64,000 nt of DNA. Origin: an uncultured Methanosarcinales archaeon. GTDB lineage: Archaea > Nanobdellota > Nanobdellia > Woesearchaeales > DATDXC01. The stretch is taken from positions 11,143 to 75,142 of the forward strand of contig CAZDZV010000006.1 in NCBI GenBank assembly GCA_964510025.1, given 5' to 3'. Position 1 is the first letter of the stretch. Each line of letters begins with the position of its first letter. The translations under genes were made by a program, and so were the position numbers. Below are positions 228-56,558 of the stretch, in pieces. The notes below the pieces were generated by a model. It saw only the letters and a program-made list of their open reading frames with translations. It was not told where the DNA came from and did not search any database.

Positions 228-2774
228 ATGAACAAACTAGCTTTGATAAGTTTATTCTGTGTTATAGTCCTTGTGACTGGTGTTTATGGAATTGGCTATC
301 CTGTTCGTGGTAAAGTTAATGATGCCATTGATTGCGCAGATGGGGGGGCCAGAAGAGTGATACATGTTTACGTAACAGGGGATCCAGATAACTACGACAC
401 ATGTTACACCACGTCATATTTAGACAATAATAATTACGAATGTGATACTGAAAATATACCTGGGCATACTGTCGAAATTGGAAGCAGTATCACGGTTGAG
501 GTTATAGACAAAGGGGATGGTTATTATTCTGAACCTATATCTGTATTAGTTGATACGGTAACAAATGTACCTGATCTGCAACTAATTAAAGAAGGGATAA
601 TAGAACACCCAGATTATCCAACATGCCAGGGAGACACTGATGGTGATTATATAAATCAGGTTAGCGACAACTGTCCTTCTGTTTTCAACTGGGAGCAATA
701 CAATGCAGACAACGATGGCAGCGGCGATGCCTGCGATTGCGACAGCAGCGATGATACTGTTTACCATAACGCTCCTGAAATATGCGATGGCCAGGATAAC
801 CAGTGCGATGGGGATATTGGCTTTGGTGAGGTTGATGAAGGATGCGACGATGATTCAGATGATTATTGCGACCAGGCTATGACCACAGTTGGAACTCCTG
901 CTGTCTGCCCAAACGGTGGCGATGACTGTGATGATACAAATTCAGCTGTTAATCCAGGGGCATCAGAATCATGCAATGGATTAGATGACAATTGCGATGA
1001 TGTTATTGATGAAGGAGGAGATGCTCTTTGCAATCCTGGAGAGACCTGCACTGGTGAAGATGGCTGTATTGCTTCATCTTTCACATTATCATGGGAAGTT
1101 GTATTTGAGTCTACTTTGTTAACATATACAGATAGCTTCAATGCTGGTGTCGGTACAGGAGCATCAGATGGGTATGGTTCTGAAGATATCCTTCAGCCGC
1201 CTCCAAGCCCCAGTGGGATTGAGATGAAAACCATTGTGGATCTGGTGGCTCTGACAAAAGACTACAGACTAGATGATTCTGCAACGAAAATCTGGGAGAT
1301 AAAGTTGAAAGCGCAGGACCAGACAGGGGTCGGGTTTACTGGAAAGAATACGATATCCTGGTTCTTAGCTGATATACCTGATGATGTCAGACTTCTGATG
1401 ATAGACTACGGGACTGACAGTGCAAAGACCAATGTTGTAAATACTATTGACCTAAAGGTTGATCCTGACAACAAATATAGATTTGAGGTTTCAGGGGCAG
1501 ATGGGACCTATAGGTATCTGGAACTGATAGCAAGGCAGGTATCACCATCTGACAATATCGCTTACTATCCCTTTGACTCTGATTTCCTGGATGCTTCAGG
1601 AAACTTCCATGACGGAATTTCTCATGGGGACATCCAGTTTATCCCGGGGGTGATTAATGATGCAGCACTGTTCGATGGAGATGGAGATTACCTTGATATA
1701 GGCCTTTTTGTGCCCACTGACTCATTTAGCGTATCAGCCTGGGTAAAGAAAGCTGCTACCGCAAACGAGGACCAGGCCATCTTTGGCTATGGCACAGACG
1801 ATTATTTTGGTTACATGGGATTGATGAATATAGACCACAGCGGCTATAAGATGCCTTGGGGATCCATGTATACGACTGAAAGCCTGGATGACCAGTGGAC
1901 TTTCGTCACATGGGTAAGGGAGAGCACAGATAATCATTTCAGGGTTTATGTAGACGGTGAGATTTTTGCGCATATATATGGTACATGGACAGGATTGCTT
2001 CTGCCGCCTGCAAATAATACGCAATCAATAGGGGTCTCGCTAAACCATGCAAGCCCTATGGCAGACACATATTTCAGCGGCTATCTTGATGAGCTAAGAT
2101 TCTACGACAGGGTTCTGACAGAGCAGGAGATAGTAAATATGTGCAATGCAGACCAGGCAGCATCTGGCATTATCCCGGCAGACCAATGCTATAATATGAT
2201 GCCGCTTTCATCAGGATGGAATCTTGTTTCTATGCCGATCGTACCAACTGAATTCAACAAAGACAGGGAGATTTCCCTAAAGCAGGGCTGGAATCTTTTT
2301 GGGCATGTTTCCAAGGCTCCATTCTATTGGCTTGATGCAAAGATACGAAAAGCAGGGGAGACAAAAACAATAGAAGAAGCGCATTCAGATGTGTGGGTCC
2401 AGTCTACTATATACCATTTTGACCCTGGACAACAGGTCTATACCTTTGTGCCTGGAGACACTGACTACCTGGAGCCAAGCAAAGGCTACTGGCTGTATGC
2501 GTTCGAAGATGATCTGACCCTGATACTGGAAAACGCAGGTGGAGCAGCTATGGAAAACGACTTCTTGTGGACAGACGCTGAAATAAGCGATGGAACAGAG
2601 ACAAAAACACTTGAAGAGGCAAACCAGGCCGGATGGCTGCAATCGACAGTCTATTATTATGACGCAGAAGAGCAGGTTTACAAATTCGTGCCTGGAGACG
2701 ATGACTACACTTATCCATGGAAAGGCTACTGGATCTACTGCAACATAGATGACCTGACCCTGACTATCAGCTAA
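228..2774 (+). CDS. secreted mosaic surface protein: TSP3-like Ca-binding repeat, Cys/Asp-rich repeats, LamG-like domain, duplicated C-terminal ~95-aa module
   Basis: 848-aa ORF. ATG 228 is preceded by aggtgg. Hydrophobic leader MNKLALISLFCVIVLVTGVYG. DNCPSVFNWEQYNADNDGSGDACD is thrombospondin type-3-like. CDGQDNQCDG and CNGLDDNCDDVIDEG repeats. LamG_3-like FDGDGDYLDIG ... GYLDELRFYDRVLTEQEI. The tail module QST.Y..D...QVY.FVPGD.DY..P.KGYW.Y...DDLTL occurs twice. Confidence 0.75.
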   Translation: MNKLALISLFCVIVLVTGVYGIGYPVRGKVNDAIDCADGGARRVIHVYVTGDPDNYDTCYTTSYLDNNNYECDTENIPGHTVEIGSSITVEVIDKGDGYYSEPISVLVDTVTNVPDLQLIKEGIIEHPDYPTCQGDTDGDYINQVSDNCPSVFNWEQYNADNDGSGDACDCDSSDDTVYHNAPEICDGQDNQCDGDIGFGEVDEGCDDDSDDYCDQAMTTVGTPAVCPNGGDDCDDTNSAVNPGASESCNGLDDNCDDVIDEGGDALCNPGETCTGEDGCIASSFTLSWEVVFESTLLTYTDSFNAGVGTGASDGYGSEDILQPPPSPSGIEMKTIVDLVALTKDYRLDDSATKIWEIKLKAQDQTGVGFTGKNTISWFLADIPDDVRLLMIDYGTDSAKTNVVNTIDLKVDPDNKYRFEVSGADGTYRYLELIARQVSPSDNIAYYPFDSDFLDASGNFHDGISHGDIQFIPGVINDAALFDGDGDYLDIGLFVPTDSFSVSAWVKKAATANEDQAIFGYGTDDYFGYMGLMNIDHSGYKMPWGSMYTTESLDDQWTFVTWVRESTDNHFRVYVDGEIFAHIYGTWTGLLLPPANNTQSIGVSLNHASPMADTYFSGYLDELRFYDRVLTEQEIVNMCNADQAASGIIPADQCYNMMPLSSGWNLVSMPIVPTEFNKDREISLKQGWNLFGHVSKAPFYWLDAKIRKAGETKTIEEAHSDVWVQSTIYHFDPGQQVYTFVPGDTDYLEPSKGYWLYAFEDDLTLILENAGGAAMENDFLWTDAEISDGTETKTLEEANQAGWLQSTVYYYDAEEQVYKFVPGDDDYTYPWKGYWIYCNIDDLTLTIS

Positions 2775-4134
2775 ACATTATTTTTTTCTTGTTTCTTTGC
2801 GTCATTATGCATAGTAATATTAGTATGAATACCAGAACTGACAGTGCTACCAAAGCAATGTCTTTTGCGGACTTTTTTTGCGATTGGAGTATTATCTCCT
2901 GCATAATCTCTTCCTCGGTGATTCCGCTGATAGCAACATTTTCTAGATTATAGCCTTCTGCTTTAAAGTACACAAATTTTTCATCTTCATCGACCTTAAT
3001 GGTATTTAGCTTTTCCCACTGGTTTGTTTTCTGAATCCTGTTGTATAGGTATACGTCGTTTTCAGTGAGTTGATTGGTTTGCAGCCATGTTTTCTCCACC
3101 TTAAAGGTAAACACCACTTTCTCAACATCATCATCATCCATATTTCTTTTGACTATCTCAAACTGGCTATATGCTATGCCAGGTGGTTCGCTTGCAGCGA
3201 AAGCCGGTAGCACGCTTTTCACAGCCATGCCTACATTCTTGACTTTCTTTTTCGTAAAGATGGAGATGCTTTCTATAGCCATGCCATCCAGTACAACATT
3301 GACCGGCTTATCAGGGGTAATCTCCTGGTATCTGATCTTTTTCTGAATGATCTCCACAGGTGCTACCGCAACTGGCTGATCGGCGGTGGGAGCAGCGCTT
3401 CCTGCCCCGCCACCGCCGCCTCCGCCGCTGCATACCCCGCAATCCTGGGGGCAAGTCGAGCATGTTTCATCCGGACTGCAAGTCCCATCACCGCAGTCAG
3501 AGACAGCATCGACAGTAAAATAGGCATAGTTTGTCCTTACATTGTTTTCTGAATCATTTGCATAGATCTGGATTAGATATTCGCCATCCGCCAGGTCTTC
3601 GATATTTATTTCGCTGAAATTGCATTCCCTGCATAAGGTGATATTTGCTCCGCCATCAAAGCTATACCAGATTGTATCATTGTAATCCCTTATGGTTGTT
3701 GCATTCACCACAACAGAATCCTCGTCATAAGCTGTAGTTGACGGCGCATCGATTGAGACGATTGCCAGCAATTGCATTACCGGAGCTACGTTATAGGCAC
3801 CATAATCAGTAGTTAAGCTCACAGAATTAGATACATAGTTACCTTCATTATCCACCATCTTTGCATGCAAAATATCACCAGCATTCCAATCATAACTAGG
3901 TATCAAATCAGGATCGCAACAGTAAACATTGTCCCATGCATTTACAATACAGGAATCATTATTCGGTTCAGTATTCTCTGTGTAGATTACTACCTCTCTC
4001 CAAGCTGGTTCAGTTCCATCATAGGCGTTGCTGATTTCCCCACAGATTAAGGGAGCCCCAATAGCATTTATGCTCAGTAAAAAAAATACGGATATGTACA
4101 GTAGCACAAATTTATTCTTGTTGCCAGTTAACAT
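2767..4134 (-). CDS. surface protein with PGF-pre-PGF-like domain and C-terminal membrane anchor
   Basis: 455-aa ORF. Leader FVLLYISVFFLLSINAIGA. Poly-Gly linker CSGGGGGGGAGSA. PGF-pre-PGF-like block VNVVLDGMAIESISIFTKKKVKNVGMAVKSV ... FVYFKAEGYNLENVAISG. C-terminal TM IALVALSVLVFILILLCIM plus a basic tail. The 3' end overlaps the convergent 228..2774 gene by 8 nt. Confidence 0.7.
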   Translation of the reverse strand: MLTGNKNKFVLLYISVFFLLSINAIGAPLICGEISNAYDGTEPAWREVVIYTENTEPNNDSCIVNAWDNVYCCDPDLIPSYDWNAGDILHAKMVDNEGNYVSNSVSLTTDYGAYNVAPVMQLLAIVSIDAPSTTAYDEDSVVVNATTIRDYNDTIWYSFDGGANITLCRECNFSEINIEDLADGEYLIQIYANDSENNVRTNYAYFTVDAVSDCGDGTCSPDETCSTCPQDCGVCSGGGGGGGAGSAAPTADQPVAVAPVEIIQKKIRYQEITPDKPVNVVLDGMAIESISIFTKKKVKNVGMAVKSVLPAFAASEPPGIAYSQFEIVKRNMDDDDVEKVVFTFKVEKTWLQTNQLTENDVYLYNRIQKTNQWEKLNTIKVDEDEKFVYFKAEGYNLENVAISGITEEEIMQEIILQSQKKSAKDIALVALSVLVFILILLCIMTQRNKKKIMFS

Positions 4135-5581
4135 CGTCTGTTATGAATACACTATATGCTTCCTCCAAAGCTATTTCAAAATTTCCAATCTTAAAGGGCC
4201 CAATGTCAATAGAGCCATCCCATTCTTGTGTTGTTGCATCCCAGCGATTTACACTATTACTGGTTGGGATGCTGTCCATCAAATCATGAGCATCAGTATA
4301 AGTTGTATTACCATACAATGATACAAAATGTCTACCATTATGTTTGTTTTTATCTTCCACATAATTCATCGATATACTTTGGTTTTCAATGAGGCTGCCC
4401 GCCCAGCTCCACTCCATTGATATAGGGCTATCTGTCTTAAGATATACATATACAGCTGATGCTGTCTTATTGATATTAAAATTGCACGGTTCTGCACTGC
4501 AAAAAGCTGGAGGGGGGCAAGAGAATTCTGTACAAACCCAGTAATCTACTGTCGGATCTTCCGGTTGATAAATATAGAATCTCACACTATCAAACTCCTG
4601 AGAAAGCTCTAGCAAATCTTCAGCATCACTTATATATGATGCATTGAGATAAAGACCTAGATAATTCTTGGCAGAATCACCACTTTTCCTCGCAAACGTA
4701 AAATTCTGCTTTCCGACTATGTCAATTGTCTTGTTCAGGCCTCTGTCATTGACAGCAAAAACCCTGTAGTACACTCTTCTGTTCTGCAGCGCTGCTGCAT
4801 CCAGGAATGATTCTTCACCAACACCTATCGTAACGCAGTTGCTCCATCCAGACTGCAGGGAGGTTGTATTGCATATCATAATGTCCTTTGTGTAGTTAGT
4901 GTCGGCAACATCCCATGTCAAGGTGACACCCTCAGCTTCATCGAGGCTTATGTTGAGCCCCATAGGACCCAAAGGATACTTGCTGTAATTAACATCAACA
5001 TAGCTTGAGTTAACTGCTGTGCCGTTATCAGTGCCGTCGAAGGCCACAGCTTCGCATGTCCAGTTTGCCCCTATTGTGACATTTCCGTCCAATATGAGGC
5101 TGATGTTGTCAAACTCAGGCTTATGGGTGCCGTTTACGAACCATTTATAATAATACGAGAGATTATCATAGTTATCGTCAGAGCCGGTTGCAGTGCAGTT
5201 CAGATCGCTCGTCTCGTTTGGATTGGCGGGAAGAACCTCTACAGTCAGCACAGCTGGTGCTGTGTTGTCGACGCTCACATTCGCAAATGTGCTCAGGCTG
5301 TAATACCCTGTCAGGCTTGGGGCACCTAGATAGGTCAAGATTCCTGTTATGCTTAATATGACTGTTATCATGCTTATCGTCAGAAGAATATTTGTTTTTT
5401 CAAGCCTTCTTTGTTCAAGCTGCCTTATCTCTGACGTTATCTGCCTGACGCGGGCCTCGTAGCCCTCTATCCTCTCAGCATAATAACGCTTCAGCTCCCC
5501 ATCGACCATTGACCTATACCTGTCGGCAAGATGGATATAGCCTACAAGCTCTGCTCTTTTCTTCCTAAGTCTGTCGATCAT
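4112..5581 (-). CDS. type-II membrane-anchored, sequon-dense extracellular protein
   Basis: 489-aa ORF with an ATGA overlap to the upstream gene. Coiled-coil cytoplasmic N-terminus, one TM (ILLTISMITVILSITGILTYLG), then about 400 aa with about 20 N-x-S/T sequons. Domain pattern LNCTATGSDDNYDNLSYYYKWFVNG...NWTCEAVAFDG. Confidence 0.65.
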   Translation of the reverse strand: MIDRLRKKRAELVGYIHLADRYRSMVDGELKRYYAERIEGYEARVRQITSEIRQLEQRRLEKTNILLTISMITVILSITGILTYLGAPSLTGYYSLSTFANVSVDNTAPAVLTVEVLPANPNETSDLNCTATGSDDNYDNLSYYYKWFVNGTHKPEFDNISLILDGNVTIGANWTCEAVAFDGTDNGTAVNSSYVDVNYSKYPLGPMGLNISLDEAEGVTLTWDVADTNYTKDIMICNTTSLQSGWSNCVTIGVGEESFLDAAALQNRRVYYRVFAVNDRGLNKTIDIVGKQNFTFARKSGDSAKNYLGLYLNASYISDAEDLLELSQEFDSVRFYIYQPEDPTVDYWVCTEFSCPPPAFCSAEPCNFNINKTASAVYVYLKTDSPISMEWSWAGSLIENQSISMNYVEDKNKHNGRHFVSLYGNTTYTDAHDLMDSIPTSNSVNRWDATTQEWDGSIDIGPFKIGNFEIALEEAYSVFITDDVNWQQE

Positions 5582-6036
5582 TTTGTTCTGTTGTATACTG
5601 TCCAGATTGTCTTTTCATTTCTGTGCAGCAACTCCCCTATATCATGATAGCTGATTTCGAAATTATCCTTGATAAAAACAACAATTGCGCCTAGCAGGCT
5701 TGATCCTGATTTCAAAGCGTCAAAAGGGATGTCATACTTTGAATAGCTGTAGCTGTAGCTTCTTGGATACTTTCTCTTAGAGTTCCTGTAAGCAAGCCAG
5801 CAAGAAGAAACCTCTTTATCCAGCAAACCCGCTATCTCCTTAAAAGACTTGTCCATATTCTCCCGCAGAAACTTAACAACTGTCTCAAGTGGGCTTAGCT
5901 TATCATTGAAGATAGAAACAGGCAATTTGTCTTCACCTTCCAGCAAGCCAAAAACCTCTTCAGCGCTAAGGTCATACTTAGCCCTAAACCTGTCAAACCT
6001 TTCCTGCAATTGCACTAAATCAGTTTCCTGAATCAT
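5578..6036 (-). CDS. tandem helix-turn-helix DNA-binding protein
   Basis: 152-aa ORF with ATG at 6036. Two sigma70-region-4/LuxR-like HTH units: LSPLETVVKFLRENMDKSFKEIAGLLDKEVSSCWLAYRNSKRK and LLGAIVVFIKDNFEISYHDIGELLHRNEKTIWTVYNRTK. First gene of a 3-gene overlapping minus-strand operon. Confidence 0.5.
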   Translation of the reverse strand: MIQETDLVQLQERFDRFRAKYDLSAEEVFGLLEGEDKLPVSIFNDKLSPLETVVKFLRENMDKSFKEIAGLLDKEVSSCWLAYRNSKRKYPRSYSYSYSKYDIPFDALKSGSSLLGAIVVFIKDNFEISYHDIGELLHRNEKTIWTVYNRTK

Positions 6037-6285
6037 ATAAATAAGTATTAAAATTATATTTGTAAGTATATAAATCTTTTTATTTTATATTTGTAAGTTT
6101 CATTAAAATTTAAGTAAGTATTATCTTTTTATTTGTAAGTAATTTTATATATTTATAAGTATTTAATTTTATAAATAAGCAATAAAACAATATTTGTAAG
6201 CTTATATATTATATAAATAAGTAATTAATAAATATTTAAAAGTATAAATTTATATTAATAAGTAATAAATATTTATTTGTAAGAA
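6037..6285. repeat. AT-rich array of ~12 tandem 20-21-bp units with core AT(T/A)(T/A)(G/A)TAAG (iteron-like)
   Basis: TAAG cores at 6042, 6063, 6094, 6115, 6136, 6156, 6176, 6197, 6218, 6259 and 6280, plus a degenerate AAAG at 6239. Exact TATTTGTAAG at 6057, 6088, 6130, 6191 and 6274. Spacing is 20-21 bp except for one 31-bp unit. Almost no G/C. Confidence 0.8.
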
Positions 6286-7359
6286 CTATTTCTTGACAGG
6301 TTTCATATCTTTTGTCTTTTCCTTGTCAGGCTTGTCATCCTTCTTCTCTTTATCGTTCTTCTCTTCTTTTTTCTCTGATTTGACTTCAGCTGAAGCTTCA
6401 GCTGGCTTGCCTTCCAGATGCTTATTGAGGTATTCCTGAAGCTTTAGTCCCTGTGCAAACAAGGGATTGTCCTTGAGCAGATCTTCAAAGGCCTTTGACA
6501 TTATCTCTGCTTTCTCTATCTTAAATTCAAACTCGCCCCTTAGCTTGCCTTCCATCTCCTTGAACCTGTCTGCAAGCTTCCTGAAATATTCCTCAACCTC
6601 GGCAAGTACCTTCTTAACCTTCTTATCGTGTTTCTCTATCTTCTCTATCTTTGTCTCAAACTCCTTCTTCTTCAGGAATGTGCCGGAAGAGACCTCCAGC
6701 TTATCCACCTTGGCAGTAAGCTCCTTAAGCTCGCCTTTGAGGCTTTCAAGCTTGTCTGCAAATGTGTTAAACGCTTCAAAGCTTTTCTGCGCTTCTATGA
6801 AAACATTGTCCACCCTGTCAGCATGCCTCTCTACCTCGGCAGTTATCTTCTTCACGGTCATTATCTCTGTCTTGACCTCCTCATTGAGCTTTATGACCTG
6901 CTCTATGCCCCTGAAAACATTTACCTGGTCCCTTATTTTCCTCAGCTGGTCCATTATGTTCTTCATCATCTCTTCTTTAGCTTCCAGAATTCCCCGTAAC
7001 CCTTCTATCTTTCCATCCTCTTTCTGGACCTGGATCATCAGCTTGTCTGGATGCACGCTCTCTACCAGGTCAGCTGCCTTTGTGGCCTTAACCTCGATCA
7101 TTCCGACTGTCCTTTGAGTATCATTAATCTGCCCCCTTATCTCCCCTATCTGTTCGTTCATGGTGGCAAACCTTTCGCCTGTAGATTTCCTCATCTCTTT
7201 CAGGCTTTCCAGGGTGCCGTTTATCTTCGTAAGGTCTGCCTGGATCATCTCTACTTTCTGAGAAACATTCGCATCTGCAGGAATCTCTTTGTTCTCCTCT
7301 TCCTCTTCGTCATCAGATTCCTCTTCTTGCTTCTTTTTTTTCTTTTTAAAAGGCCACAT
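6286..7359 (-). CDS. long coiled-coil protein with Lys-run/acidic N-terminus and Lys-rich tail
   Basis: ATG at 7359; the ORF track begins one codon earlier at GTG 7362. N-terminal KKKKKKQEEESDDEEEEE, then about 300 aa of heptad-like E/K/L-rich sequence. No catalytic motif seen. Confidence 0.6.
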   Translation of the reverse strand: MWPFKKKKKKQEEESDDEEEEENKEIPADANVSQKVEMIQADLTKINGTLESLKEMRKSTGERFATMNEQIGEIRGQINDTQRTVGMIEVKATKAADLVESVHPDKLMIQVQKEDGKIEGLRGILEAKEEMMKNIMDQLRKIRDQVNVFRGIEQVIKLNEEVKTEIMTVKKITAEVERHADRVDNVFIEAQKSFEAFNTFADKLESLKGELKELTAKVDKLEVSSGTFLKKKEFETKIEKIEKHDKKVKKVLAEVEEYFRKLADRFKEMEGKLRGEFEFKIEKAEIMSKAFEDLLKDNPLFAQGLKLQEYLNKHLEGKPAEASAEVKSEKKEEKNDKEKKDDKPDKEKTKDMKPVKK

Positions 7360-7455
7360 CACACCAAATAATTAATAGACTACTATATTAAACTTTTGCA
7401 TAAAAGAAAACTTTATATATGTATTAAACGAATATTGGCCAAAAGGGGTGATAAA

Positions 7456-16286: not shown

Positions 16287-16934
16287 ATGAAGAGAATAGC
16301 TGTTTTGGCGATGCTCATATTACTCTCGCAAATGTCTTTTGGCGCTATTCTTCATGGCACAATATACGACACGAAGTTCAATAAGCTAAACGATGTTATA
16401 GTTGAGATAAATTCAACTCCCCCCCAGATCTTTGTTTCTAAAGAAGGGCAATATTCTTTTGTTCTTGACCCAGGACCATATAAGATCACCGCTAAATACC
16501 AGCTCAGTGATGCAAACTACCTTTATTCAGAGTCAAACGTGACAATCGCCAGGAATGGCTACTTTCTGGTAGACCTGTTCCTTAGGCCTGCCAGGAAGAT
16601 TGAAATGCCGACAGGAGCTGTTGTCGGAACCAACGTATTCCTAAATTATTCGATACTCGCATCGGTTAGCGTAACTCTGCTTATAATTTTGGGATTCTCA
16701 GTCTACAAGCTTCGTTCCAGCAATCCTCAAGCCCCTGAATTTGATGACTATACAAACAAGGTCCTTAATGCTGTCAGGGAAGAGGGAGGTAGGACCACCC
16801 AGAAGGACATAAGGAAAAAGATAGCATTGTCTGAAGGAAAGATAAGCCTCATAATATCTGATTTAGAGAACAAAGGGATATTGAAGAGGATCAAAAAAGG
16901 AAGGGGAAACATCATTATCTTAAGCAAGAGATAG
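16287..16934 (+). CDS. membrane protein: extracellular carboxypeptidase-regulatory-like domain, TM, cytoplasmic winged-helix domain
   Basis: 215 aa. Leader MKRIAVLAMLILLSQMSFGA. HGTIYDT...VSKEGQYSFVLDPGPYKITAKY. TM ILASVSVTLLIILGFSVY. C-terminal wHTH TTQKDIRKKIALSEGKISLIISDLENKGILKRIKKGRGNII. Confidence 0.6.
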   Translation: MKRIAVLAMLILLSQMSFGAILHGTIYDTKFNKLNDVIVEINSTPPQIFVSKEGQYSFVLDPGPYKITAKYQLSDANYLYSESNVTIARNGYFLVDLFLRPARKIEMPTGAVVGTNVFLNYSILASVSVTLLIILGFSVYKLRSSNPQAPEFDDYTNKVLNAVREEGGRTTQKDIRKKIALSEGKISLIISDLENKGILKRIKKGRGNIIILSKR

Positions 16935-17069: not shown

Positions 17070-17882
17070 ATGGGCAGAATTCAGGAGAGATTAGAGCTAG
17101 CCTTGTCAGAATTCGCAGCTCAGGAAAAAAAGGAAAAAGAGAGTATACTATTTCTACCTTTGAGTGAAATAAAGCTTAATCCCAACAGGATAAGAAGAAA
17201 GATCAACAGAGAGGAGATTGCAGATATGGCTAACAACCTGAAGAAGTTTGGCATACTTCAGCCTCTTGAAATCAACGGAAAAAAAGAAGTGGTCCTGGGC
17301 AACAGGAGATTTGAGGCTGCAAAACTAGCTTCTTTGGAGAAGGTTCCTTGTGTAATACGCAACAGCTCAGACATCTTGGAGATGGAAAAACAGCTTGTTT
17401 CCGACCTTCACACAAAGCATCTAAGTGTGCTTGAGAGGGCAATAGCTTTTAGCACCCTTATGGAACTGAAGTCAATGACCAAATACGCGCTTGCAAAATA
17501 TCTAAATCTAAGCCACAACCTTGTATGCAGGACCTTGGCGCTGCTGAAAGCAAATGAGAATACCATGAGATTGATCAGGCTAGGCAGAATCAGCCAGAGA
17601 AAGGTAGCTATGGTTTTGTATAGGCTGAAAGACAAAAAAATGGAAGATTTCGTGATTCAGGAGATAATAGGCAGAAAGATGAATATAGTTCAGGCAGGAA
17701 ATTTCATAGCAGAGATAAATGATCCTGAGATATTCAAGAAGCATTTCTTGACAAGAATAAAGGCTTTCAAAACAACAGTGATGCACTTTAGGGAAAAGCT
17801 CGAAAAACTCAATCTTACCGAAGAGCAAAGAAAAGAGATTCTGGAAGAGCTAAGGTCCATTGATTTCAGTGAAATATTATGA
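17070..17882 (+). CDS. ParB/Spo0J/KorB-like protein (ParB N-terminal domain + HTH)
   Basis: 270 aa. LPLSEIKLNPNRIRRKIN...ILQPLEI...VLGNRRFEAAKLA contains the GxxRxxA arginine patch. HTH KYALAKYLNLSHNLVCRTLALLK. No ParA is nearby. ATGA overlap with the next gene. Confidence 0.75.
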   Translation: MGRIQERLELALSEFAAQEKKEKESILFLPLSEIKLNPNRIRRKINREEIADMANNLKKFGILQPLEINGKKEVVLGNRRFEAAKLASLEKVPCVIRNSSDILEMEKQLVSDLHTKHLSVLERAIAFSTLMELKSMTKYALAKYLNLSHNLVCRTLALLKANENTMRLIRLGRISQRKVAMVLYRLKDKKMEDFVIQEIIGRKMNIVQAGNFIAEINDPEIFKKHFLTRIKAFKTTVMHFREKLEKLNLTEEQRKEILEELRSIDFSEIL

Positions 17883-18718
17883 AGGTTGATTTCGATTTCC
17901 ATACCCATACTGACGTATCTGATGGTAGCTTAAGCCCTTCTGCCCTGGTCAGAAAAGCCAAGCGTGAAGGATTGAGGCTTATTGCGATAACAGACCACGA
18001 CAATATTGACGGTATACCTGAAGCAGTTGAGACTGGCAGGAAGATAGGTATTGATGTCATTCCGGGTGTGGAGATTAGCATTGACTTCAAGGCTACGATG
18101 CATATGTGCGGCTACTTCATCGACATAACTGATACCCAGCTCAGAAAAGCCCTGAAGTTTGTGCAGGATGCTCGCAGAGACAGAAATCCTCAGATTATCG
18201 ATAAGCTGAACAAGCTGGGCATGGATGTGAGGATTGAAGATGTTAAGAAACATGCAGGCAGGGATCAGATTGGAAGGCCCCATTTCGCAAAAGCGCTTAT
18301 CGAGAAAGGCTATGTTACGACAAAAGAAGAGGCCTTTGAAAAATATCTGGCAAAAGGCAGGCCGGCGTATGTAGACAAGAAGCGGCTTGACAGGGAGAAA
18401 GCAGTGAAGACCATCCTGGATGCAGGAGGCACTGCTGTCCTTGCGCATCCCAAGCAGCTTCGCCTGGACACTGCCAAAGAATACAGGAAGCTTTTTATGG
18501 AGATGAAGGAATTGGGCGTCTCTGGCATCGAAGCATACTCAAGCTGCCATACAGAAGATGAAAATAAGATGTTCAGGGAGATCGCTGATGAGCTGGGGAT
18601 GCTTGTCACCGGAGGCAGCGACTTCCATGGTGACACAAAACAAGATGTTGAACTAGGGGAATTCGGAGAGAACATTGATATTGACGTGGATAAGTTGGTT
18701 GAAAAGATGAAAGCATGA
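17879..18718 (+). CDS. PHP-domain phosphoesterase, COG0613 (TrpH/YciV-like); candidate 3',5'-bisphosphate nucleotidase
   Basis: 279 aa. DFHTHTDVSDGSLSPSALVRKAKREGLRLIAITDHDNIDG, ...AHP..., GGSDFHG. The stops and starts at both ends overlap as ATGA. Confidence 0.8.
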   Translation: MKVDFDFHTHTDVSDGSLSPSALVRKAKREGLRLIAITDHDNIDGIPEAVETGRKIGIDVIPGVEISIDFKATMHMCGYFIDITDTQLRKALKFVQDARRDRNPQIIDKLNKLGMDVRIEDVKKHAGRDQIGRPHFAKALIEKGYVTTKEEAFEKYLAKGRPAYVDKKRLDREKAVKTILDAGGTAVLAHPKQLRLDTAKEYRKLFMEMKELGVSGIEAYSSCHTEDENKMFREIADELGMLVTGGSDFHGDTKQDVELGEFGENIDIDVDKLVEKMKA

Positions 18719-20118
18719 GAGAAAAGCACATTTTCTGGCTTCTGCTTGTTTTTATTGTATATATGCATTTTGAAGACCTGGTGAAGCTCTATTTCAATTA
18801 TCATCCGATAGCGCATGGGTTCAAGTATGTTTTTGCCCTGGTATTCTTCCTTATATGGATTTTTCAGATTGGGGTAGTTAATACAAGATTTACGATACCT
18901 CTGGCTGTTTATCTGTTCTTTGTATTTGTCCAGTTCATAAATCCCCTCATGTTTGGAAAACAGGGCTTTATGTTGTCGGTTATTGGGTCGCTTTACTATA
19001 TAGCATTTGTGCCCTTGTTTTTTGTTGCCCATCGGGTATTTGATATAGAAAGGCTGAAAAAGACACTATGGATTGTCTTAGGCTTGGCTTGCTTTTCAGC
19101 TCTGGCAGCGCATATACAGTTCTTCCTTGGCTGGCAGAGATACCTCCAGCTGATGCCTTACAGCCATGAGATGTTCCTGAGGACCAAAAACTTTGTTTTC
19201 CATGGGCCTTTGGCTTTCAGCGTAAAGCCCCCAAGATACTGGTATGTTGCAGGCATAATGATCAGCAGCATTTTTGTTCTTTCTGAAAAGAAAAAGCTCA
19301 TAGCTGGCTTTCTGGGCCTTAACTGCTTGCTTGCTTTGGCCCTTTCAGGAATGAGGTTTGCCATGGCAGCTTCTTTTTTTTCCCTGATGATAGTCTTTTT
19401 CTTTGGACTAAGAAAGCAGAAAATATCTAATGCGATGAGGATAGCTGCAGTTTTGATACTGCTATTGACTATGTTTTTCCCTTTCTCGATGCTTCCCAAG
19501 CAAAGGTACATTCAGTTCATCACAAATCCTGTTGGTACATATATCCAGCAAAGAGGGAGGATGTGGCCACAGTTTTTCAGGGATATCGTCAAATATCCGT
19601 TAGGCACAGGATTGAGGGCCGGAGGGCATATTGACACCGAAAGGTTTAAGGTACCTGATGTATCGATGCGTGCCGGAGAAAACTACATAGCAGTCATCGC
19701 TTCCCAGATTGGCATATTTGGGCTGATTGCAGTGCTTTGGCTATATGTTGCGATAGCCCGAAAATTCTATGAAAACTTGTCCCTGAGGAGATTCAGATAT
19801 TTTGTCAGTCTGGGCATATTTGCCCTGCTATTTTCCTTTATGTTTGAGGTGGGTTTTTTCCCGGGAGAAGGCCCGAGCTACTGGATGTTCTGGCTGTTTT
19901 CAGGTGTCTTGTTCAAAATAGATAAGATGGAGGTACAAAAGATGCGAAAAACATATTCTTTGGCTAGCGAAAGTTTTTTTCTCAGGGGAATTCCTGATGT
20001 AAGGGTATGGCTCTTACAAAGCAAATTTGTCAAGCTGGGCCATAGGATATTCTGTTGTTTCAGGAATTCAAGGTTTTTTAGGTTTATTGAGAATATAGTC
20101 AAGTATGCGGAAATTTAA
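18715..20118 (+). CDS. polytopic membrane protein, O-antigen ligase/polymerase (Wzy_C)-like
   Basis: 467 aa, about 10-12 hydrophobic helices. The loop GTGLRAGGHIDTERF lies between helices, as in the Wzy_C family. Confidence 0.5.
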   Translation: MREKHIFWLLLVFIVYMHFEDLVKLYFNYHPIAHGFKYVFALVFFLIWIFQIGVVNTRFTIPLAVYLFFVFVQFINPLMFGKQGFMLSVIGSLYYIAFVPLFFVAHRVFDIERLKKTLWIVLGLACFSALAAHIQFFLGWQRYLQLMPYSHEMFLRTKNFVFHGPLAFSVKPPRYWYVAGIMISSIFVLSEKKKLIAGFLGLNCLLALALSGMRFAMAASFFSLMIVFFFGLRKQKISNAMRIAAVLILLLTMFFPFSMLPKQRYIQFITNPVGTYIQQRGRMWPQFFRDIVKYPLGTGLRAGGHIDTERFKVPDVSMRAGENYIAVIASQIGIFGLIAVLWLYVAIARKFYENLSLRRFRYFVSLGIFALLFSFMFEVGFFPGEGPSYWMFWLFSGVLFKIDKMEVQKMRKTYSLASESFFLRGIPDVRVWLLQSKFVKLGHRIFCCFRNSRFFRFIENIVKYAEI

Positions 20119-34034: not shown

Positions 34035-35155
34035 CTTTCATAGTCAGCCACCCGATCCAGTATTTCTCTCCGCTATTTAGATTACTATCGAAAAAAATGG
34101 ACCTTACGGTCATTTATCTATCAGATGAAACATTGAAGACTTTCATGGATAAAGAATTTTCAGCAGCGATTAAGTGGGATATTCCTTTGTTAAAAGGGTA
34201 TAGGTACAAATTACTAAAAAATAATTCACCTGTCCATTCTGTTTCCAGGCCACCTTTTGGTTTATTAAATCTTGGGATTCTAAATGAGATAACCAATAAA
34301 AAATATGATTGCATAATAGTCCATGGGTGGCATTATGTAAGCCATTGGTTAGTCTACATCCTATGTATCCTTAGGCAGCTGCCTTTCTATATTAGGTCTG
34401 AATCTCCCCTAAACCAGGAAAAAACAAAGCCTGATTGGAAGATTTACATCAAAAAAATTTTACTTGGATATTTATTTCGTAGGGCAGCTGGTCTTCTGGC
34501 GATTGGAACTCAAAACAGGAGATTCTATGGGTTCTATGGGGTAGAAAATAAAAAAATCTTTTATGCACCTTATTCTGTCGATAATGATAGGCTTATGCCA
34601 AAAAAACGTAAAACTAAAAAAGACAAAATAGTAATCTTGTTTGTTGGGAAGCTTATAGAGAAAAAAAGGCCTATGGATCTGTTGCAGGCCTTTGAAAGGA
34701 TAAGTTATGAAACAAAAGCCCTGTATTTTGTAGGCGAAGGAAAAATGAAGAGACAGCTGCAAAAATATACGAAAAAAAATCATCTAAAAAACGTATTTTT
34801 CCCTGGATTTGTAAATCAGACAGCCCTCCCAGACTATTATAATATGGCGGATATATTTGTGCTTCCGTCTGGAATAGGAGAAACCTGGGGGCTGGTAGTA
34901 AACGAAGCAATGTGTTTTGGCCTCCCAGTTATAGTATCGGATATTTCAGGATGCAGCACAGATTTGGTAAAACAAGGCAAAAATGGCTACATATTTAAAA
35001 CAGGAGATATAGGACAATTGTCACGATATTTGAACATGCTTATAAAAAATAAGAAACTAAGAAACCAGATGGGATCTAGGTCTCTCAAAATCATAGGTCA
35101 ATTTAGCTGCAAAGCAGCAGCCGAAGGGATTGCTAAGGCTGTCAAGAGAAAATGA
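34022..35155 (+). CDS. GT4 glycosyltransferase
   Basis: FVLPSGIGETWGLVVNEAMCFGLPVIVSDISG. Confidence 0.8.
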   Translation: MDKVAFIVSHPIQYFSPLFRLLSKKMDLTVIYLSDETLKTFMDKEFSAAIKWDIPLLKGYRYKLLKNNSPVHSVSRPPFGLLNLGILNEITNKKYDCIIVHGWHYVSHWLVYILCILRQLPFYIRSESPLNQEKTKPDWKIYIKKILLGYLFRRAAGLLAIGTQNRRFYGFYGVENKKIFYAPYSVDNDRLMPKKRKTKKDKIVILFVGKLIEKKRPMDLLQAFERISYETKALYFVGEGKMKRQLQKYTKKNHLKNVFFPGFVNQTALPDYYNMADIFVLPSGIGETWGLVVNEAMCFGLPVIVSDISGCSTDLVKQGKNGYIFKTGDIGQLSRYLNMLIKNKKLRNQMGSRSLKIIGQFSCKAAAEGIAKAVKRK

Positions 35156-36963
35156 AGCCATTTTTAAAAATAAGGAAAATTTTAGGACTTTTCAGAAAAC
35201 TCGAAATCCGCTTAGTTTACTTTGCGATCCCTATAGTTCTTTCGTTTCTAATAGCATTTTTTGAAGGCCTAAGCATCGGACTGCTAATACCCTTGGCTAA
35301 AGGGATTGTGGAGATGGAATTCAGTTTTGTGAGAAACCTTCCTTTTTTTAAGACAATCAATGACCTTTTCCCCCAGTTGCTAGCGCATAATAGGGCGATC
35401 TTTGTGACTCTTGTACTGATCATATTCATCTCAGCAGTCTTAAAAAATGTCTTCACCTATCTATCTTCCGTCATAGTAAGATATCAAATACGGCAAGCTG
35501 CGCATAAAGCAAGAAAGCACATATTCAATAGATATCTAAGTTTTGGCAAGCTTTTTTATGACAGGAATAATGAGGGCCATCTGCAAAGCATACTGCTCAG
35601 CTATACAAACTCGATCATAGGTCAGCTAGGCTCTATCTCCCACCTCATGAACGGCTCCGCTATGCTTCTTGTGTATTTTATTATGATGTTTTCCATATCC
35701 TGGAGATTGACTGTATTCATTCTGCTGATATTTCCGGTCCTGAACCTATCACTGAAATATCTGATTGCGAAGATAAAGAAAACCTCAAAGTTCTCGGCAG
35801 ATGCTAGGAAGAGGATGAACAGGGCAGTCTTCAACGTGCTTTCGTCTATACCGATTATAAAGGCATATACGAAAGAGGAGGAGGAAAAGAAGAACTTTGA
35901 CAAAATGAGCGAAGAAATGTCAAAATGGGACTTCAGTATGGATAAAAAATACGACCTGATAGGGCCAATGCAGGAAGTTATAACCTTGATAGCAGTACTG
36001 TTGGTAATCTCAGCCATGGCCTTCTTGTTTATAAAAACTAAGACAGGTGATATCTACGGGTTTGCCGTATTTTTTTATCTGTTGAAGAAATCCATGGGCA
36101 CGTTTGGTATCTTTAACAGCTTCAAGGGATCATTGGCAAAAGCCTCCGGACAGGTGCAAGAAATAATGCATATTCTCAGTGAGAAGAATAAGCATTATGT
36201 AAAAGGAGGAAGAAAAGAATTCAATGGATTGGAATCAGAGATTAAGCTGAGTAGGCTAAGCTTCCATTATGACTCAAAAGTTCCCATAATCAAGGACATA
36301 TCCTTCTCTATCAGAAAAGGAAAGATGACGGCTATTGTAGGGCCAACTGGCTCAGGTAAGACAACAATAATCAATCTTCTTCTGAGATTTTATGAATGCC
36401 CTGAAGGTTCTATATTTGTAGATGGGCGGGATATCAAGGAGTTCACGTTAAAATCGATAAGAAAGCATATGGCCCTTGTCAGCCAGGATACTATGCTTTT
36501 CAATGATACATTGAGAAAAAATATGACCTACGGAATAGACAGACAGGTGTCTCAGCAGGAGTTGGCTAGGATAGCAAAAAAGGCCCGGATCTATGACTAC
36601 ATCAAGAAGCTTCCGCGTGGCTTTGAAACGGTTATAGGTGATAGGGGAGTGCAGCTTTCTGGAGGTGAAAAGCAGAGGATATCGATTGCAAGAGCCCTCT
36701 TGAAGAACGCCGATATATTGATACTAGATGAAGCCACAAGCTCCCTGGACTCCAGAACAGAAAAGCTCATTCAGGAAGCTATCTACGAAGCTGTGAAGGG
36801 GAGAACCTCTATAGTCATCGCACACCGGCTTTCGACTATAAAGAACGCTGACAAGATTATCATCATTGAGAAAGGCAAGATAATTGAAAAAGGAAAACCC
36901 AAGGAACTGCTTGGAAAAAAAGGCAGATTCTATCAATATTGGCAGGAGCAGAAGTTTGAATAA
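35152..36963 (+). CDS. ABC exporter, fused permease/ATPase (MsbA-type)
   Basis: 603 aa with six N-terminal TM helices. Walker A GPTGSGKTT, signature LSGGEKQRISIARAL, Walker B ILILDEATSSLD and H-loop IVIAHRLST. Confidence 0.9.
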   Translation: MKPFLKIRKILGLFRKLEIRLVYFAIPIVLSFLIAFFEGLSIGLLIPLAKGIVEMEFSFVRNLPFFKTINDLFPQLLAHNRAIFVTLVLIIFISAVLKNVFTYLSSVIVRYQIRQAAHKARKHIFNRYLSFGKLFYDRNNEGHLQSILLSYTNSIIGQLGSISHLMNGSAMLLVYFIMMFSISWRLTVFILLIFPVLNLSLKYLIAKIKKTSKFSADARKRMNRAVFNVLSSIPIIKAYTKEEEEKKNFDKMSEEMSKWDFSMDKKYDLIGPMQEVITLIAVLLVISAMAFLFIKTKTGDIYGFAVFFYLLKKSMGTFGIFNSFKGSLAKASGQVQEIMHILSEKNKHYVKGGRKEFNGLESEIKLSRLSFHYDSKVPIIKDISFSIRKGKMTAIVGPTGSGKTTIINLLLRFYECPEGSIFVDGRDIKEFTLKSIRKHMALVSQDTMLFNDTLRKNMTYGIDRQVSQQELARIAKKARIYDYIKKLPRGFETVIGDRGVQLSGGEKQRISIARALLKNADILILDEATSSLDSRTEKLIQEAIYEAVKGRTSIVIAHRLSTIKNADKIIIIEKGKIIEKGKPKELLGKKGRFYQYWQEQKFE

Positions 36964-51813: not shown

Positions 51814-52036
51814 TTTTAAGTGATGACTGCCCTACAAACCTAGAATTCTGCAATTTTAGGCTTTAATGCGTCTTTCATGCAAGACATGAATAACGACTCT
51901 GTGCTTCTCTTTGATCGGCCCACATCGGCTTTCTATTTTCATTGAGCCCATTTTATTTATATATAGGCAAGATAATGCTTTGATAATATATAAAAGCTGT
52001 GTTTATTTTGGGGAATTTGTGAGTCGACAAATCCCT

Positions 52037-52966
52037 CTAAATTATGATGTCTTTTAGGATTCCTTGTTTTACTAATTCGATATTTATCAAGTAATCATTA
52101 TGCAGAAAAGTTTCAAATAATGATTTCTTTGTTGTTTTCCATCCAAGACCATCGGTAATCCAAATTAAGTCGATTCCTTGTTTTCTTAAGAAGTCTGATA
52201 AGTACTGATATTCACCAGCTGTTGACTTTAATTTTGACCCACCGCCACTATAATAATTGGTTTCAATTACAAAAATCTTATTTTTTGATTTCTCAAATAC
52301 TGCAAAATCAAATATTCGATTGGTTTTATCAAGTTCAATATCAAAATTCCATTTCTCCTTGATCTTTTTTTGTGTTGCTTGCGGAATGTAGTCCAAGTTA
52401 TTTTTCTCTGAGAATTTCAGTATTATCTTCTCAACAATGCTCTCCATTGATTGACCTGTACGGTTTTTTCTTGCATTTGTATCCATTCCTACTTCGACAC
52501 CAAAGCAATAGTCAACAATATTCTTAACATTTTTATCTTTGAATATACTTTTTAATCCCGATTCCTTAAAGAAAATTAGTATGTCTTCTCTTATATCTGA
52601 AGTAAGCTCAACATCAGGATTAAATAATTCCAGTTTACTACCAGACTTTAGCTCTTCAAAATCATCAATGATGTTTACTGCCTTTAATTTGCTTTTTCTG
52701 ATAGCAATGAGAATTGGAAGAACCTTTCTTACATTTGGATATTCAGTAATAAGTTCAATGAATTCTTTTTCTATATCGCTTTTTCCAATTAACACATTAA
52801 GAAGATTTAGCTCTTTTTCAATTAAGTGAGTGTTATTCTTAACTTTCTCAAAATCAACAAAATAATCCCATGTAAATATGGAATCTGTCAAAGTTTGTAC
52901 AAGATAGTCAAATATCCCTTTCTCATCTTTTAGGTTTAATTTTTCATATGTTTGTAAGTATTTCAT
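52037..52966 (-). CDS. type II restriction endonuclease, DpnII/MboI family (GATC)
   Basis: 309 aa. FTWDYFVDFEKVKNN...ELNLLNVLIGK matches the DpnII-family N-terminus as I recall it. ggtga SD. Last gene of the methylase operon. Confidence 0.7.
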   Translation of the reverse strand: MKYLQTYEKLNLKDEKGIFDYLVQTLTDSIFTWDYFVDFEKVKNNTHLIEKELNLLNVLIGKSDIEKEFIELITEYPNVRKVLPILIAIRKSKLKAVNIIDDFEELKSGSKLELFNPDVELTSDIREDILIFFKESGLKSIFKDKNVKNIVDYCFGVEVGMDTNARKNRTGQSMESIVEKIILKFSEKNNLDYIPQATQKKIKEKWNFDIELDKTNRIFDFAVFEKSKNKIFVIETNYYSGGGSKLKSTAGEYQYLSDFLRKQGIDLIWITDGLGWKTTKKSLFETFLHNDYLINIELVKQGILKDIII

Positions 52967-52975
52967 TTCTTCACC

Positions 52976-53809
52976 TTAATAGTTTGTAACGACAACTTCA
53001 TTTATCTTTCCCCTTTTGTCCCCATTACAATTGATCATTCTTGTTGCCTGAACAAAATGGATTTCATAATTAGGATATAATTCTTTAATAAATTTTGTAT
53101 CGCTATTGCTTAACATCACAAGGCAACCATTATCATCCAGTTTTTTGAATACTTCAGCAAGCTGTTTCTGCTCTTCTTCTAAAAATGTGTCTTTTGTGTA
53201 GGTTGTAAAACTCTTTCCTTTTTTAAGTGGATAATAAGGAGGATCAAAATAAATAAAGTCTCCTTTATTTGCTAGATTAACAACCTTTTCGAAAGACATT
53301 ACTTTAATCGTAACATTTTTCAATAATTCTGAAACTAGTCTTAATCTATCTTCTTGGACAATATCTGGATTTTTGTAGGAACCCATCGGAACGTTGAATT
53401 TTCCCTTTGAGTTTACTCTATATAGTCCATTGAAGCAAGTCTTATTTAAATAAATGAATCGTGCTGCTCTTTCAAGAGAAGGTAATTCTTTTGGATTTGT
53501 TGCACGAATTGTTAAATAATATTTTTTGCCTTCAACCATATGATATTCCTTATGCTGTTTTAATTCAATTATTAATCTCTCTACATCACCCCTTATGGTT
53601 TCGTAAGCATTGATTAATTCTTCATTTATGTCTGAAATAATAATTTCAGAAGGATTAAACTTTTGAATTATATAGAAGAAAACTGCTCCGCTACCAACAA
53701 AAGGCTCTAAATAGCGATTAAACTTCTTTGGAAATAATGGCTCAAACTGTTCTAAAAGTTGACCTTTACCGCCTGCCCATTTAACAAATTTGGGGATTTG
53801 GATATTCAT
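52976..53809 (-). CDS. dam: Dam-family N6-adenine DNA methyltransferase (GATC; DpnM-like)
   Basis: 277 aa. KWAGGKGQLL, EPFVGSGAVFF (motif I) and FDPPYYP (motif IV). The start overlaps the OLD stop (ATGA). Confidence 0.9.
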   Translation of the reverse strand: MNIQIPKFVKWAGGKGQLLEQFEPLFPKKFNRYLEPFVGSGAVFFYIIQKFNPSEIIISDINEELINAYETIRGDVERLIIELKQHKEYHMVEGKKYYLTIRATNPKELPSLERAARFIYLNKTCFNGLYRVNSKGKFNVPMGSYKNPDIVQEDRLRLVSELLKNVTIKVMSFEKVVNLANKGDFIYFDPPYYPLKKGKSFTTYTKDTFLEEEQKQLAEVFKKLDDNGCLVMLSNSDTKFIKELYPNYEIHFVQATRMINCNGDKRGKINEVVVTNY

Positions 53810-55563: not shown

Positions 55564-55579
55564 TATTTCCCCAGTATAG

Positions 55580-56365: not shown

Positions 56366-56558
56366 TTATAAATCTAATAAAGTCCTTTATTATAAACTTT
56401 GTTATTAAACTTTCGAAATATTACTATTTTCTTTGCAATGAGCCGTCTCATCGCCCCCTCTCTTCGCAGATCCTTCTATATACAATGCAAGCCTTATGTA
56501 TTACATACTCCGAACGTTGCTTATAAACGATGGGAGCCTTAAATTAGGTGGTGATAAA

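Follow-up and report, generated by a model that had tools for sequence, protein, structure and literature searches.

A phased direct-repeat array upstream of a tandem-HTH gene is a probable cooperative promoter-operator of a woesearchaeal surface-protein operon

Introduction

The binding sites of several archaeal repressors, among them MDR1, Phr, and LrpA, are located between TATA box and start site. Upstream of its own gene, Ss-LrpB of Sulfolobus recognizes three 15-bp boxes that are in phase. MarA, SoxS, and Rob are AraC-family monomers in which two HTHs read an asymmetric site of ~20 bp through two successive major grooves. Plasmid iterons, such as the 22-bp repeats of R6K, pPS10, and P1, are bound by a Rep initiator, and iterons also lie upstream of the par operon in the partition centromeres parC/ParR of R1 and tubC/TubR of pBtoxis. 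Cbp1 of Sulfolobus is a tandem-HTH protein that binds CRISPR direct repeats. To our knowledge, gene regulation in DPANN archaea, which are either uncultured or available in co-culture only, is almost entirely unexplored.

Here, we analyzed a repeat array in a 64-kb stretch of woesearchaeal DNA (the window, meaning all 64,000 nucleotides of it) that abuts the gene of a 152-aa tandem-HTH protein. The array resembles Ss-LrpB-type operators in that the sites are phased and lie upstream of the regulator's gene, with cooperative occupancy implied and a site predicted at the core promoter. It differs from them in having up to 12 sites rather than 1 to 3, all of them direct, and in the coupling of the regulator gene to genes for giant surface proteins. 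Unlike the Lrp/AsnC or winged-helix dimers, the 152-aa protein is a single chain carrying two sigma-4-like HTHs.

With MarA, SoxS, and Rob it shares the principle of one polypeptide with two HTHs, an asymmetric bipartite site of ~17 bp whose half-sites are ~10 bp apart, and an orientation relative to the promoter that matters, whereas it lacks the AraC fold, is archaeal, and is associated with long phased arrays. Membership of the AraC/XylS family was rejected, as no HTH_18 or HTH_AraC Pfam match was obtained for the 152-aa protein. Like plasmid iterons, the array consists of direct repeats of ~20–22 bp on one helical face and adjoins the gene of a presumed autoregulating binder; unlike them, it has neither a Rep-type protein nor a plasmid or virus context, occurs as several arrays per chromosome, and has a BRE/TATA element embedded in it. 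The likeness to parC and tubC is that ~10 short direct repeats flank the promoter of the binder's operon, where a cooperative filament would also repress that operon. A type Ib, II, or III partition centromere was considered and dismissed, because the downstream membrane and surface genes have no Pfam NTPase (ParA, ParM, or TubZ). Cbp1 (PDB 2lvs) is likewise an archaeal protein of repeated HTHs associated with direct-repeat arrays and gave a weak Foldseek match (E = 0.17), but this structural match is not significant, the repeats and the genomic role differ, and there is no CRISPR array here.

Results

Phased direct repeats fill the interval upstream of the HTH gene

An AT-rich repeat block of 249 bp occupies the whole interval between the start of the HTH gene and the stop of a coiled-coil gene, and the boundaries given in a preliminary description of this DNA were reproduced by the ORFs on both sides. 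The unit is best read on the minus strand, since both flanking genes are on that strand; there, in the sense of the HTH gene, it is TACTTAYA, i.e., (T)ACTTA(C/T)A, with A/T-rich sequence after it. The features are as follows:

6037–6285, minus strand: whole array, 12–13 direct copies of TACTTAYA, from direct reading and a position weight matrix (PWM).
6283, 6262, 6242 (degenerate), 6221, 6200, 6179, 6159, 6139, 6118, 6097, 6066, 6045, minus strand: positions of the C of CTTA.
5578–6036, minus strand: tandem-HTH gene, 152 aa, proposed array binder, from ORF, profile, and AlphaFold2 model.
6286–7362, minus strand: coiled-coil ORF, 358 aa, with acidic and lysine-rich ends and weak matches to DUF5798 and BLOC1_2.

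The G+C content of the array is 9.6%, compared with 39% for the window. It is the lowest of any 249-bp stretch there (the runner-up has 20.9%), which bears out the earlier remark that this is the most AT-rich part. On the plus strand, 12 TAAG tetramers were found (6042, 6063, 6094, 6111, 6115, 6136, 6156, 6176, 6197, 6218, 6259, and 6280), together with a degenerate AAAG core at 6239, and 17 of the 18 G residues of the block fall within (G)TAAG. The successive TAAG spacings are 21, 31, 17, 4, 21, 20, 20, 21, 21, 41, and 21 bp, seven of which are 20 or 21 bp. The 20–21-bp period proposed earlier describes most spacings, and one interval is 31 bp. The exact 10-mer TATTTGTAAG occurs five times in the array (6057, 6088, 6130, 6191, and 6274), as reported, and once elsewhere in the 64 kb. 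PWM matches within the array are at 6283, 6200, 6139, 6097, and 6066.

The shuffled-composition control proposed in the preliminary description was run and did not reproduce the periodic TAAG spacing. Dinucleotide-preserving shuffles of the array (n = 5,000) contained 3.0 TAAG on average and 9 at most, and in 0 of 5,000 were 12 TAAG, seven spacings of 20–21 bp, or the observed phase vector obtained. Similarly, when 12 sites were placed at random, seven spacings of 20–21 bp arose in 0 of 20,000 trials. The array of 12 same-strand cores is thus real. Tandem Repeats Finder (TRF), also suggested at that stage, detected periodicity across 6149–6283 with 72% matches, although the period that it returned was 41 bp, i.e., two units.

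An RNA element at the array was considered and rejected after RNA folding, in which the sense-strand RNA was less stable than its shuffles (z = +1.0) and formed no structure. Rfam and tRNA scans of the window returned no matches.

The adjacent gene encodes a protein with two sigma-4-like HTHs

The AlphaFold2 model of the 152-aa protein (pLDDT 91, pTM 0.74) comprises an N-terminal helical hairpin and two three-helix domains resembling sigma-70 region 4. Both HTHs superpose on region 4 of sigma-E bound to −35 DNA (43 residues, 0.6 Å), and the structural matches are to sigma-4, LuxR, and Lrp-type HTH domains. The alignment indicates an internal duplication into two similar HTH units, with recognition helices ...EKTIWQAY... 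and ...ERTIWTVYNR.... Pfam returned Sigma70_r4_2 and HTH_23 only, both below threshold, and searches for an NCBIfam family and for a sequence relative in the PDB were negative. A sigma-70 or ECF sigma factor was rejected as an identity: the protein has just two region-4-like domains and no region 2, all NCBIfam sigma models score ~25 bits on it against cut-offs above 270, and the organism is an archaeon with TBP/TFB.

A profile search (E ≤ 1e-10) collected 2,040 clusters at 50% identity, and the named homologues belong to Woesearchaeota or Nanoarchaeota. No relatives of the family were found in IMG/VR or PLSDB. A metagenome scan with the window protein yielded only two loci, both distant and incomplete. 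The family also occurs as forms of ~330–360 aa with four HTH units (among P0018–P0067; 65–1060 in L035). An apparent C-terminal HTH module is present on giant proteins, such as P0022 (5,919 aa, match at 5568–5718) and P0029 (3,886 aa); these may be genuine fusions or result from merged gene calls.

The motif and its phasing recur upstream of HTH homologues

For comparison with relatives, one genome per species was scanned, which returned 116 relatives, and 80 loci were kept; motif statistics were computed on 76 non-redundant 400-bp regions upstream of HTH homologues from Woesearchaeota and Nanoarchaeota genomes. The first four homologous loci each carry 4–8 sense-strand copies of (T)ACTTACAT directly upstream of the HTH gene. 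Across the 76 regions, the top 7-mer is ACTTACA, with 141 occurrences in 52 regions, so that the arrays sought beside HTH orthologues, as the preliminary description had advised, do exist. The 7-mer is enriched ~20-fold over the loci as a whole and is strongly oriented (141 sense versus 23 antisense), and the iterated PWM gave 211 sense and 23 antisense matches in the upstream regions. Of the ~216 sense-strand PWM matches in 546 kb of loci, 152 fall at −400 to 0 of the start of an HTH-family gene; the remaining clusters stand before a second HTH paralogue (L038) or before a 1,313-aa gene followed by an HTH gene (L009). Among full-length homologues, 12 of 68 upstream regions lack a PWM site, and the strict CTTA[CT]A pattern is missing from 13 of 76. 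Several of the siteless HTH genes directly follow another gene, and others have variant motifs.

In the relatives, the distances between successive sites cluster at 21–22, 31–32, 42, 53, 63–64, 74, and 84 bp. When the 146 spacings of the relatives were analyzed with the window excluded, the best period was 10.6 bp (R = 0.69), a value reached in 0 of 2,000 null trials, and the signal was kept without the 20–23-bp class (R = 0.57). This period equals the DNA helical repeat, which favors proteins assembled along one side of the helix and speaks against a role at the RNA level. Together with the 20–21-bp spacings of the window, it agrees with the earlier statement that the copies are phased at two helical turns on one face.

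Several relatives' genomes hold two or three copies of the module. In L009, two operator arrays (799–1010 and 5500–5837) lie within 5 kb of each other. One precedes the 1,313-aa gene that abuts an HTH gene, and the other precedes an HTH paralogue followed by a giant gene; they differ in the right half-site, which is TTA... in one and AATATGTA in the other. Two further loci (L076, ~4690–4949; L078, ~4800–4961) encode shorter paralogues of 137–139 aa with up to eight copies of a shifted motif, (T)ACTACATACAAAGTA, which is the usual core minus one T.

The array is predicted to contain the promoter of the HTH gene

The sole 31-bp interval among the minus-strand C positions, from 6097 to 6066, holds a likely BRE/TATA element. 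Around it, the array may be divided as follows:

6083–6285, minus strand: upstream block of 10 phased sites at 20–21-bp spacing, 5' of the predicted BRE/TATA; compare 2–9 upstream sites in relatives.
6067–6081, minus strand: predicted core promoter, a BRE-like AAAAAGA followed by the TATA box TTTATATA (6067–6074), from sequence reading and alignment to relatives.
6052–6068, minus strand: TATA-proximal operator, TA-CTTACAAATATAATT; the nearest 5' site is 31 bp away, three helical turns, as it is in relatives.
6031–6047, minus strand: weak start-proximal operator, TA-CTTATTTAT-ATG, overlapping the start codon and the predicted transcription start.

Ten sites are therefore 5' of the predicted TATA box and two (6066 and 6045) are 3' of it. 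Transcription is predicted to start near 6041–6046, ~26 nt beyond the center of TTTATATA. The predicted promoter aligns with GGAAAGCTTTATATAC in L001 and GGCAAGGTTTATATAC in L086, and AAAAAGA-TTTATATA of the window aligns with GGAAAGC-TTTATATAC and GGCAAGG-TTTATATAC of the two closest relatives. The counterpart of the start-proximal operator is the second site of L086. A scan for promoters and terminators gave 0 matches and is uninformative, as its models are bacterial and the organism is archaeal. It had been stated that the array is not a simple promoter, but a predicted promoter does lie within it.

In ~35 relatives, the BRE/TATA signature aAAGA-TTTATATA or a close variant is found 14–16 bp before the C of one site, the offset being 14, 15, and 16 bp in 14, 11, and 7 cases, respectively (n = 32). 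Typically, 2–9 sites are 5' of the TATA box and one is between the TATA box and the start codon, and the TATA box usually begins 31–57 nt 5' of the start codon. Across the TATA box, the upstream sites remain in register with the TATA-proximal site at the 10.6-bp period. The closest of them is always at least 31 bp from it, three helical turns, which is also the gap in the window. The TATA-proximal site scores 15.9 bits, compared with 14.8 bits for upstream sites.

From this layout, we propose, with a probability of roughly 0.6, that 6037–6285 is the promoter-operator of an operon comprising the HTH gene and two surface-protein genes, and that it would be occupied as a one-faced cooperative array and autorepressing. 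The HTH protein is probably an autorepressor, the sign of regulation being the weakest step of the argument. Some observations count against this proposal: the window's proximal site abuts the TATA box at an offset of 8 bp, as opposed to the usual 14–16 bp in relatives; the right half-site is unrecognizable in the window; the closest relative has no upstream array; and some homologues lack a site upstream. The sharp TATA offset would also be compatible with a stereospecific positive contact to the initiation complex.

The same protein and sites could accordingly be read the other way round, with the array as an upstream activating sequence or a dual-function switch that recruits or stabilizes TBP/TFB. 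Positive autoregulation would then give on/off (bistable) expression of the surface proteins, with repression only at high occupancy. Most sites (2–10) are indeed 5' of the TATA box, the sharp 14–16-bp offset and the phase kept across the TATA box suggest a stereospecific relation to the initiation complex, and position-dependent dual regulators, such as Ss-LrpB, TrmBL1, and SurR, are common in archaea. However, one site nearly always covers the interval from TATA box to start, a position from which bound protein should obstruct polymerase, this site scores at least as high as those upstream, and L086 retains downstream sites only. An activating or dual role is, on balance, rather unlikely, though it is a serious competitor.

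The right half-site co-varies with the first HTH

The sites of most relatives extend over 17 bp and form an imperfect palindrome, TACTTACAT-nn-TAAGTA; 56–62% of sites have G at +12. The left half, TACTTAC(A), is conserved, and the right half, ~10 bp further, is TAAGTA, CAGA, or ATGTA depending on the relative; in the window it is not recognizable and is A/T-rich only. The HTH2 helix RTIWTVYNR is nearly invariant, as is the left half-site TACTTACA. The HTH1 helix is variable, and the right half-site varies along with it:

HTH1 helices RTIW[T/H/I/A], similar to HTH2: right half TAAGTA.
HTH1 helices with W-Q: right half (C/A)AGA.
HTH1 helices ER[C/N]IW: right half ATGTA.
HTH1 VSSCWL, the clade of the window: right half A/T-only.

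A W-Q helix is accompanied by GA at +12/+13 in 11 of 14 loci, compared with 3 of 42 (Fisher p = 7e-7, a value that carries no phylogenetic correction). This covariation is the best available evidence on the binder; it suggests that the protein encoded next to the array most likely binds it, one chain per bipartite site, and supports the nomination of the two-HTH protein in the preliminary description.

The motif might instead be bound by another factor or be a lineage-wide promoter element, with the HTH protein a passenger. The left half is the same even in very divergent paralogues, as would be the case for a general element. The motif is, however, all but missing elsewhere: the 64-kb window has just five copies of ACTTACA, three of them in the array, no second cluster of the motif is present there, and few matches fall outside the regions upstream of HTH and giant genes in the 546 kb. 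The covariation of the right half-site with the HTH1 helix of the adjacent gene speaks against a passenger as well, and we regard this explanation as improbable. PWM matches outside the array were found on the minus strand of the window at 58396–58430 (58405/58424) and 52949–52958, with 15.5, 11.1, and 13.7 bits; those at 58405/58424 and 52958 lie inside coding regions, one of them in codons 3–5 of a DpnII gene, and are taken as chance.

Array size varies from two to twelve sites

The number of sites varies within the clade from 2 to 12. The closest relative, L086 (56% identity), has a TATA box and two downstream sites without an upstream array, and L001 has four or five sites. Because of these smaller numbers, the twelve sites of the window look like a local expansion, which fits the 41-bp TRF period, and a large array does not appear essential to the module, since L086 manages with two sites. 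The extreme A+T content is peculiar to the window, whose right half-site is A/T-only; arrays of relatives are not notably AT-rich between sites.

Part of the window array probably grew by duplication, as the TRF period at 72% matches indicates. That the array merely arose from AT-rich DNA through slippage or tandem duplication, as a phase-variable tract or curved DNA with no specific binder, is a reading for which this period and the range of array sizes speak, but it is highly improbable. Only the motif positions are conserved, the spacers being different, and the motif and its phasing recur at loci whose flanking DNA cannot be aligned.

The array heads a putative surface-protein operon in a chromosomal context

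Two genes follow the HTH gene on the same strand:

4112–5581, minus strand: 489-aa gene, with a 4-nt overlap between its start and the HTH stop codon.
2767–4134, minus strand: 455-aa gene for a secreted, membrane-anchored protein, the third of the putative operon.

The 489-aa protein has a coiled coil at its N-terminus and a transmembrane segment; its extracellular portion contains an Ig-like repeat also found in the giant proteins of relatives. The gene is probably co-transcribed with the HTH gene. The order of HTH, 489-aa-like, and 455-aa-like genes is also found in L035. An overlap of 4–14 nt between the HTH stop and the following ORF is present in most of ~70 loci. That ORF is usually longer than 1,300–2,000 aa and runs off the retrieved locus, with examples of 4,738 and 3,143 aa. 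The putative operon of the window is a smaller version of this layout of HTH and giant surface protein.

An 848-aa protein (228–2774, plus strand) with Laminin_G_3 and MopE metal-binding motifs is encoded convergently with the end of the HTH/surface-protein operon and adds to the local surface-protein cluster. A very close homologue of the 358-aa coiled-coil protein (E = 1e-136) is encoded in L047, on the strand opposite to a different HTH paralogue that lies ~2 kb away. From 16287 to 46229, ~30 kb of tightly packed, co-directional plus-strand genes open with a DUF7343/HTH_24 protein (16287–16934) and a ParB_N/HTH_ParB protein (17070–17882) and include a Wzy_C O-antigen-ligase-like protein (18715–20118) and an ABC exporter (35152–36963). 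This run resembles a cluster for surface-glycan biosynthesis with a ParB-like protein at its head; the ParB-like gene is 11 kb from the array and unrelated to it. A low-GC island at 52000–56400 (28–30% versus 39%) carries a DpnII-type restriction endonuclease (52037–52966, minus strand) and an AAA_15/AbiEii-like ATPase with a DUF3226-like C-terminus (53806–55563, minus strand), and is probably a horizontally acquired defense island.

Iterons are tandem direct repeats of ~17–22 bp beside a Rep gene on an extrachromosomal or viral replicon; the array has 12 units of 20–21 bp, but no Rep was found among the neighbors scanned, and its surroundings are chromosomal. The neighboring genes in the window encode aIF5B, DUF371, Trm1, RtcA (RNA 3'-phosphate cyclase), riboflavin-synthesis enzymes, and PUA-domain proteins. 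The preliminary description had likened the array to plasmid or viral iterons and to cooperative nucleoprotein arrays and had suggested a possible DNA-unwinding region, while considering a chromosomal origin unsupported; the latter judgment agrees with our finding no Orc1/Cdc6 among ~30 ORFs scanned, and the iteron and unwinding reading is not supported, given the chromosomal context, the multi-copy module, the embedded BRE/TATA, and the lack of relatives in IMG/VR and PLSDB. The array motif is not ORB-like, and the arrays of relatives are always accompanied by an HTH gene. A replication origin, in which an initiator binds the repeats and the 90% A+T DNA unwinds on a chromosome, a plasmid, or an integrated virus, has in its favor direct repeats of ~21 bp, an iteron-typical length, in the lowest-GC stretch of the window, and a low in cumulative GC skew around 7–16 kb, though skew follows gene orientation here, but it is scarcely credible given chromosomal housekeeping genes as neighbors, no Rep in the scanned ORFs, a module with two or three copies per genome and, in L009, two arrays within 5 kb of each other, a motif fixed in orientation relative to the gene and arranged around BRE/TATA, and arrays in relatives with no marked A+T excess between sites.

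Discussion

If the array is a cooperative autorepressing operator, its action may be pictured as follows. One 152-aa monomer would occupy each site, its HTH2 contacting the left half and its HTH1 the right, in successive major grooves. Neighbors at 21-bp spacing would touch head to tail, possibly via the N-terminal hairpin, and these contacts would lead to cooperative occupancy over ~250 bp. Protein at sites 6066 and 6045, at and downstream of the TATA box, would block TBP/TFB or RNA polymerase, so that the protein represses the operon to which its gene belongs, along with the surface-protein genes that are translationally coupled to it. Cooperativity would come from the ten upstream sites, which would also raise the local concentration and sharpen the response.

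A bolder view is that the array and its sigma-4-like HTH protein form a DPANN-specific switch for giant surface proteins, in which the protein polymerizes along one DNA face across BRE/TATA and acts on TBP/TFB/RNA polymerase as a promoter-specificity or bistable factor. A stereospecific action of this kind is conceivable because one site has a fixed 14–16-bp offset and phase from the TATA box, yet we regard the proposal as doubtful and put it forward as speculation. Were it true, a sigma-region-4 fold would be serving the control of archaeal initiation.

Literature searches on Woesearchaeota and DPANN, HTHs, giant surface proteins, and the motif retrieved no description of the family, the motif, or the architecture. 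The predicted regulator/operator module on giant surface-protein genes is, as far as these searches show, previously undescribed; it is DPANN-wide, and the array of the window is among its largest. A false origin-of-replication lead has been removed. In its place, a regulator family (~2,000 clusters at 50% identity), its predicted DNA site, the promoter architecture, and the putatively regulated genes have been defined from sequence alone, for an uncharacterized family without a dedicated Pfam or NCBIfam model or a solved relative. The predicted site even says which HTH probably reads which half. With the motif, the regulon can be searched for in any Woesearchaeota genome. The giant surface proteins that the module is predicted to control are thought to mediate host attachment and are prime candidates for host recognition.
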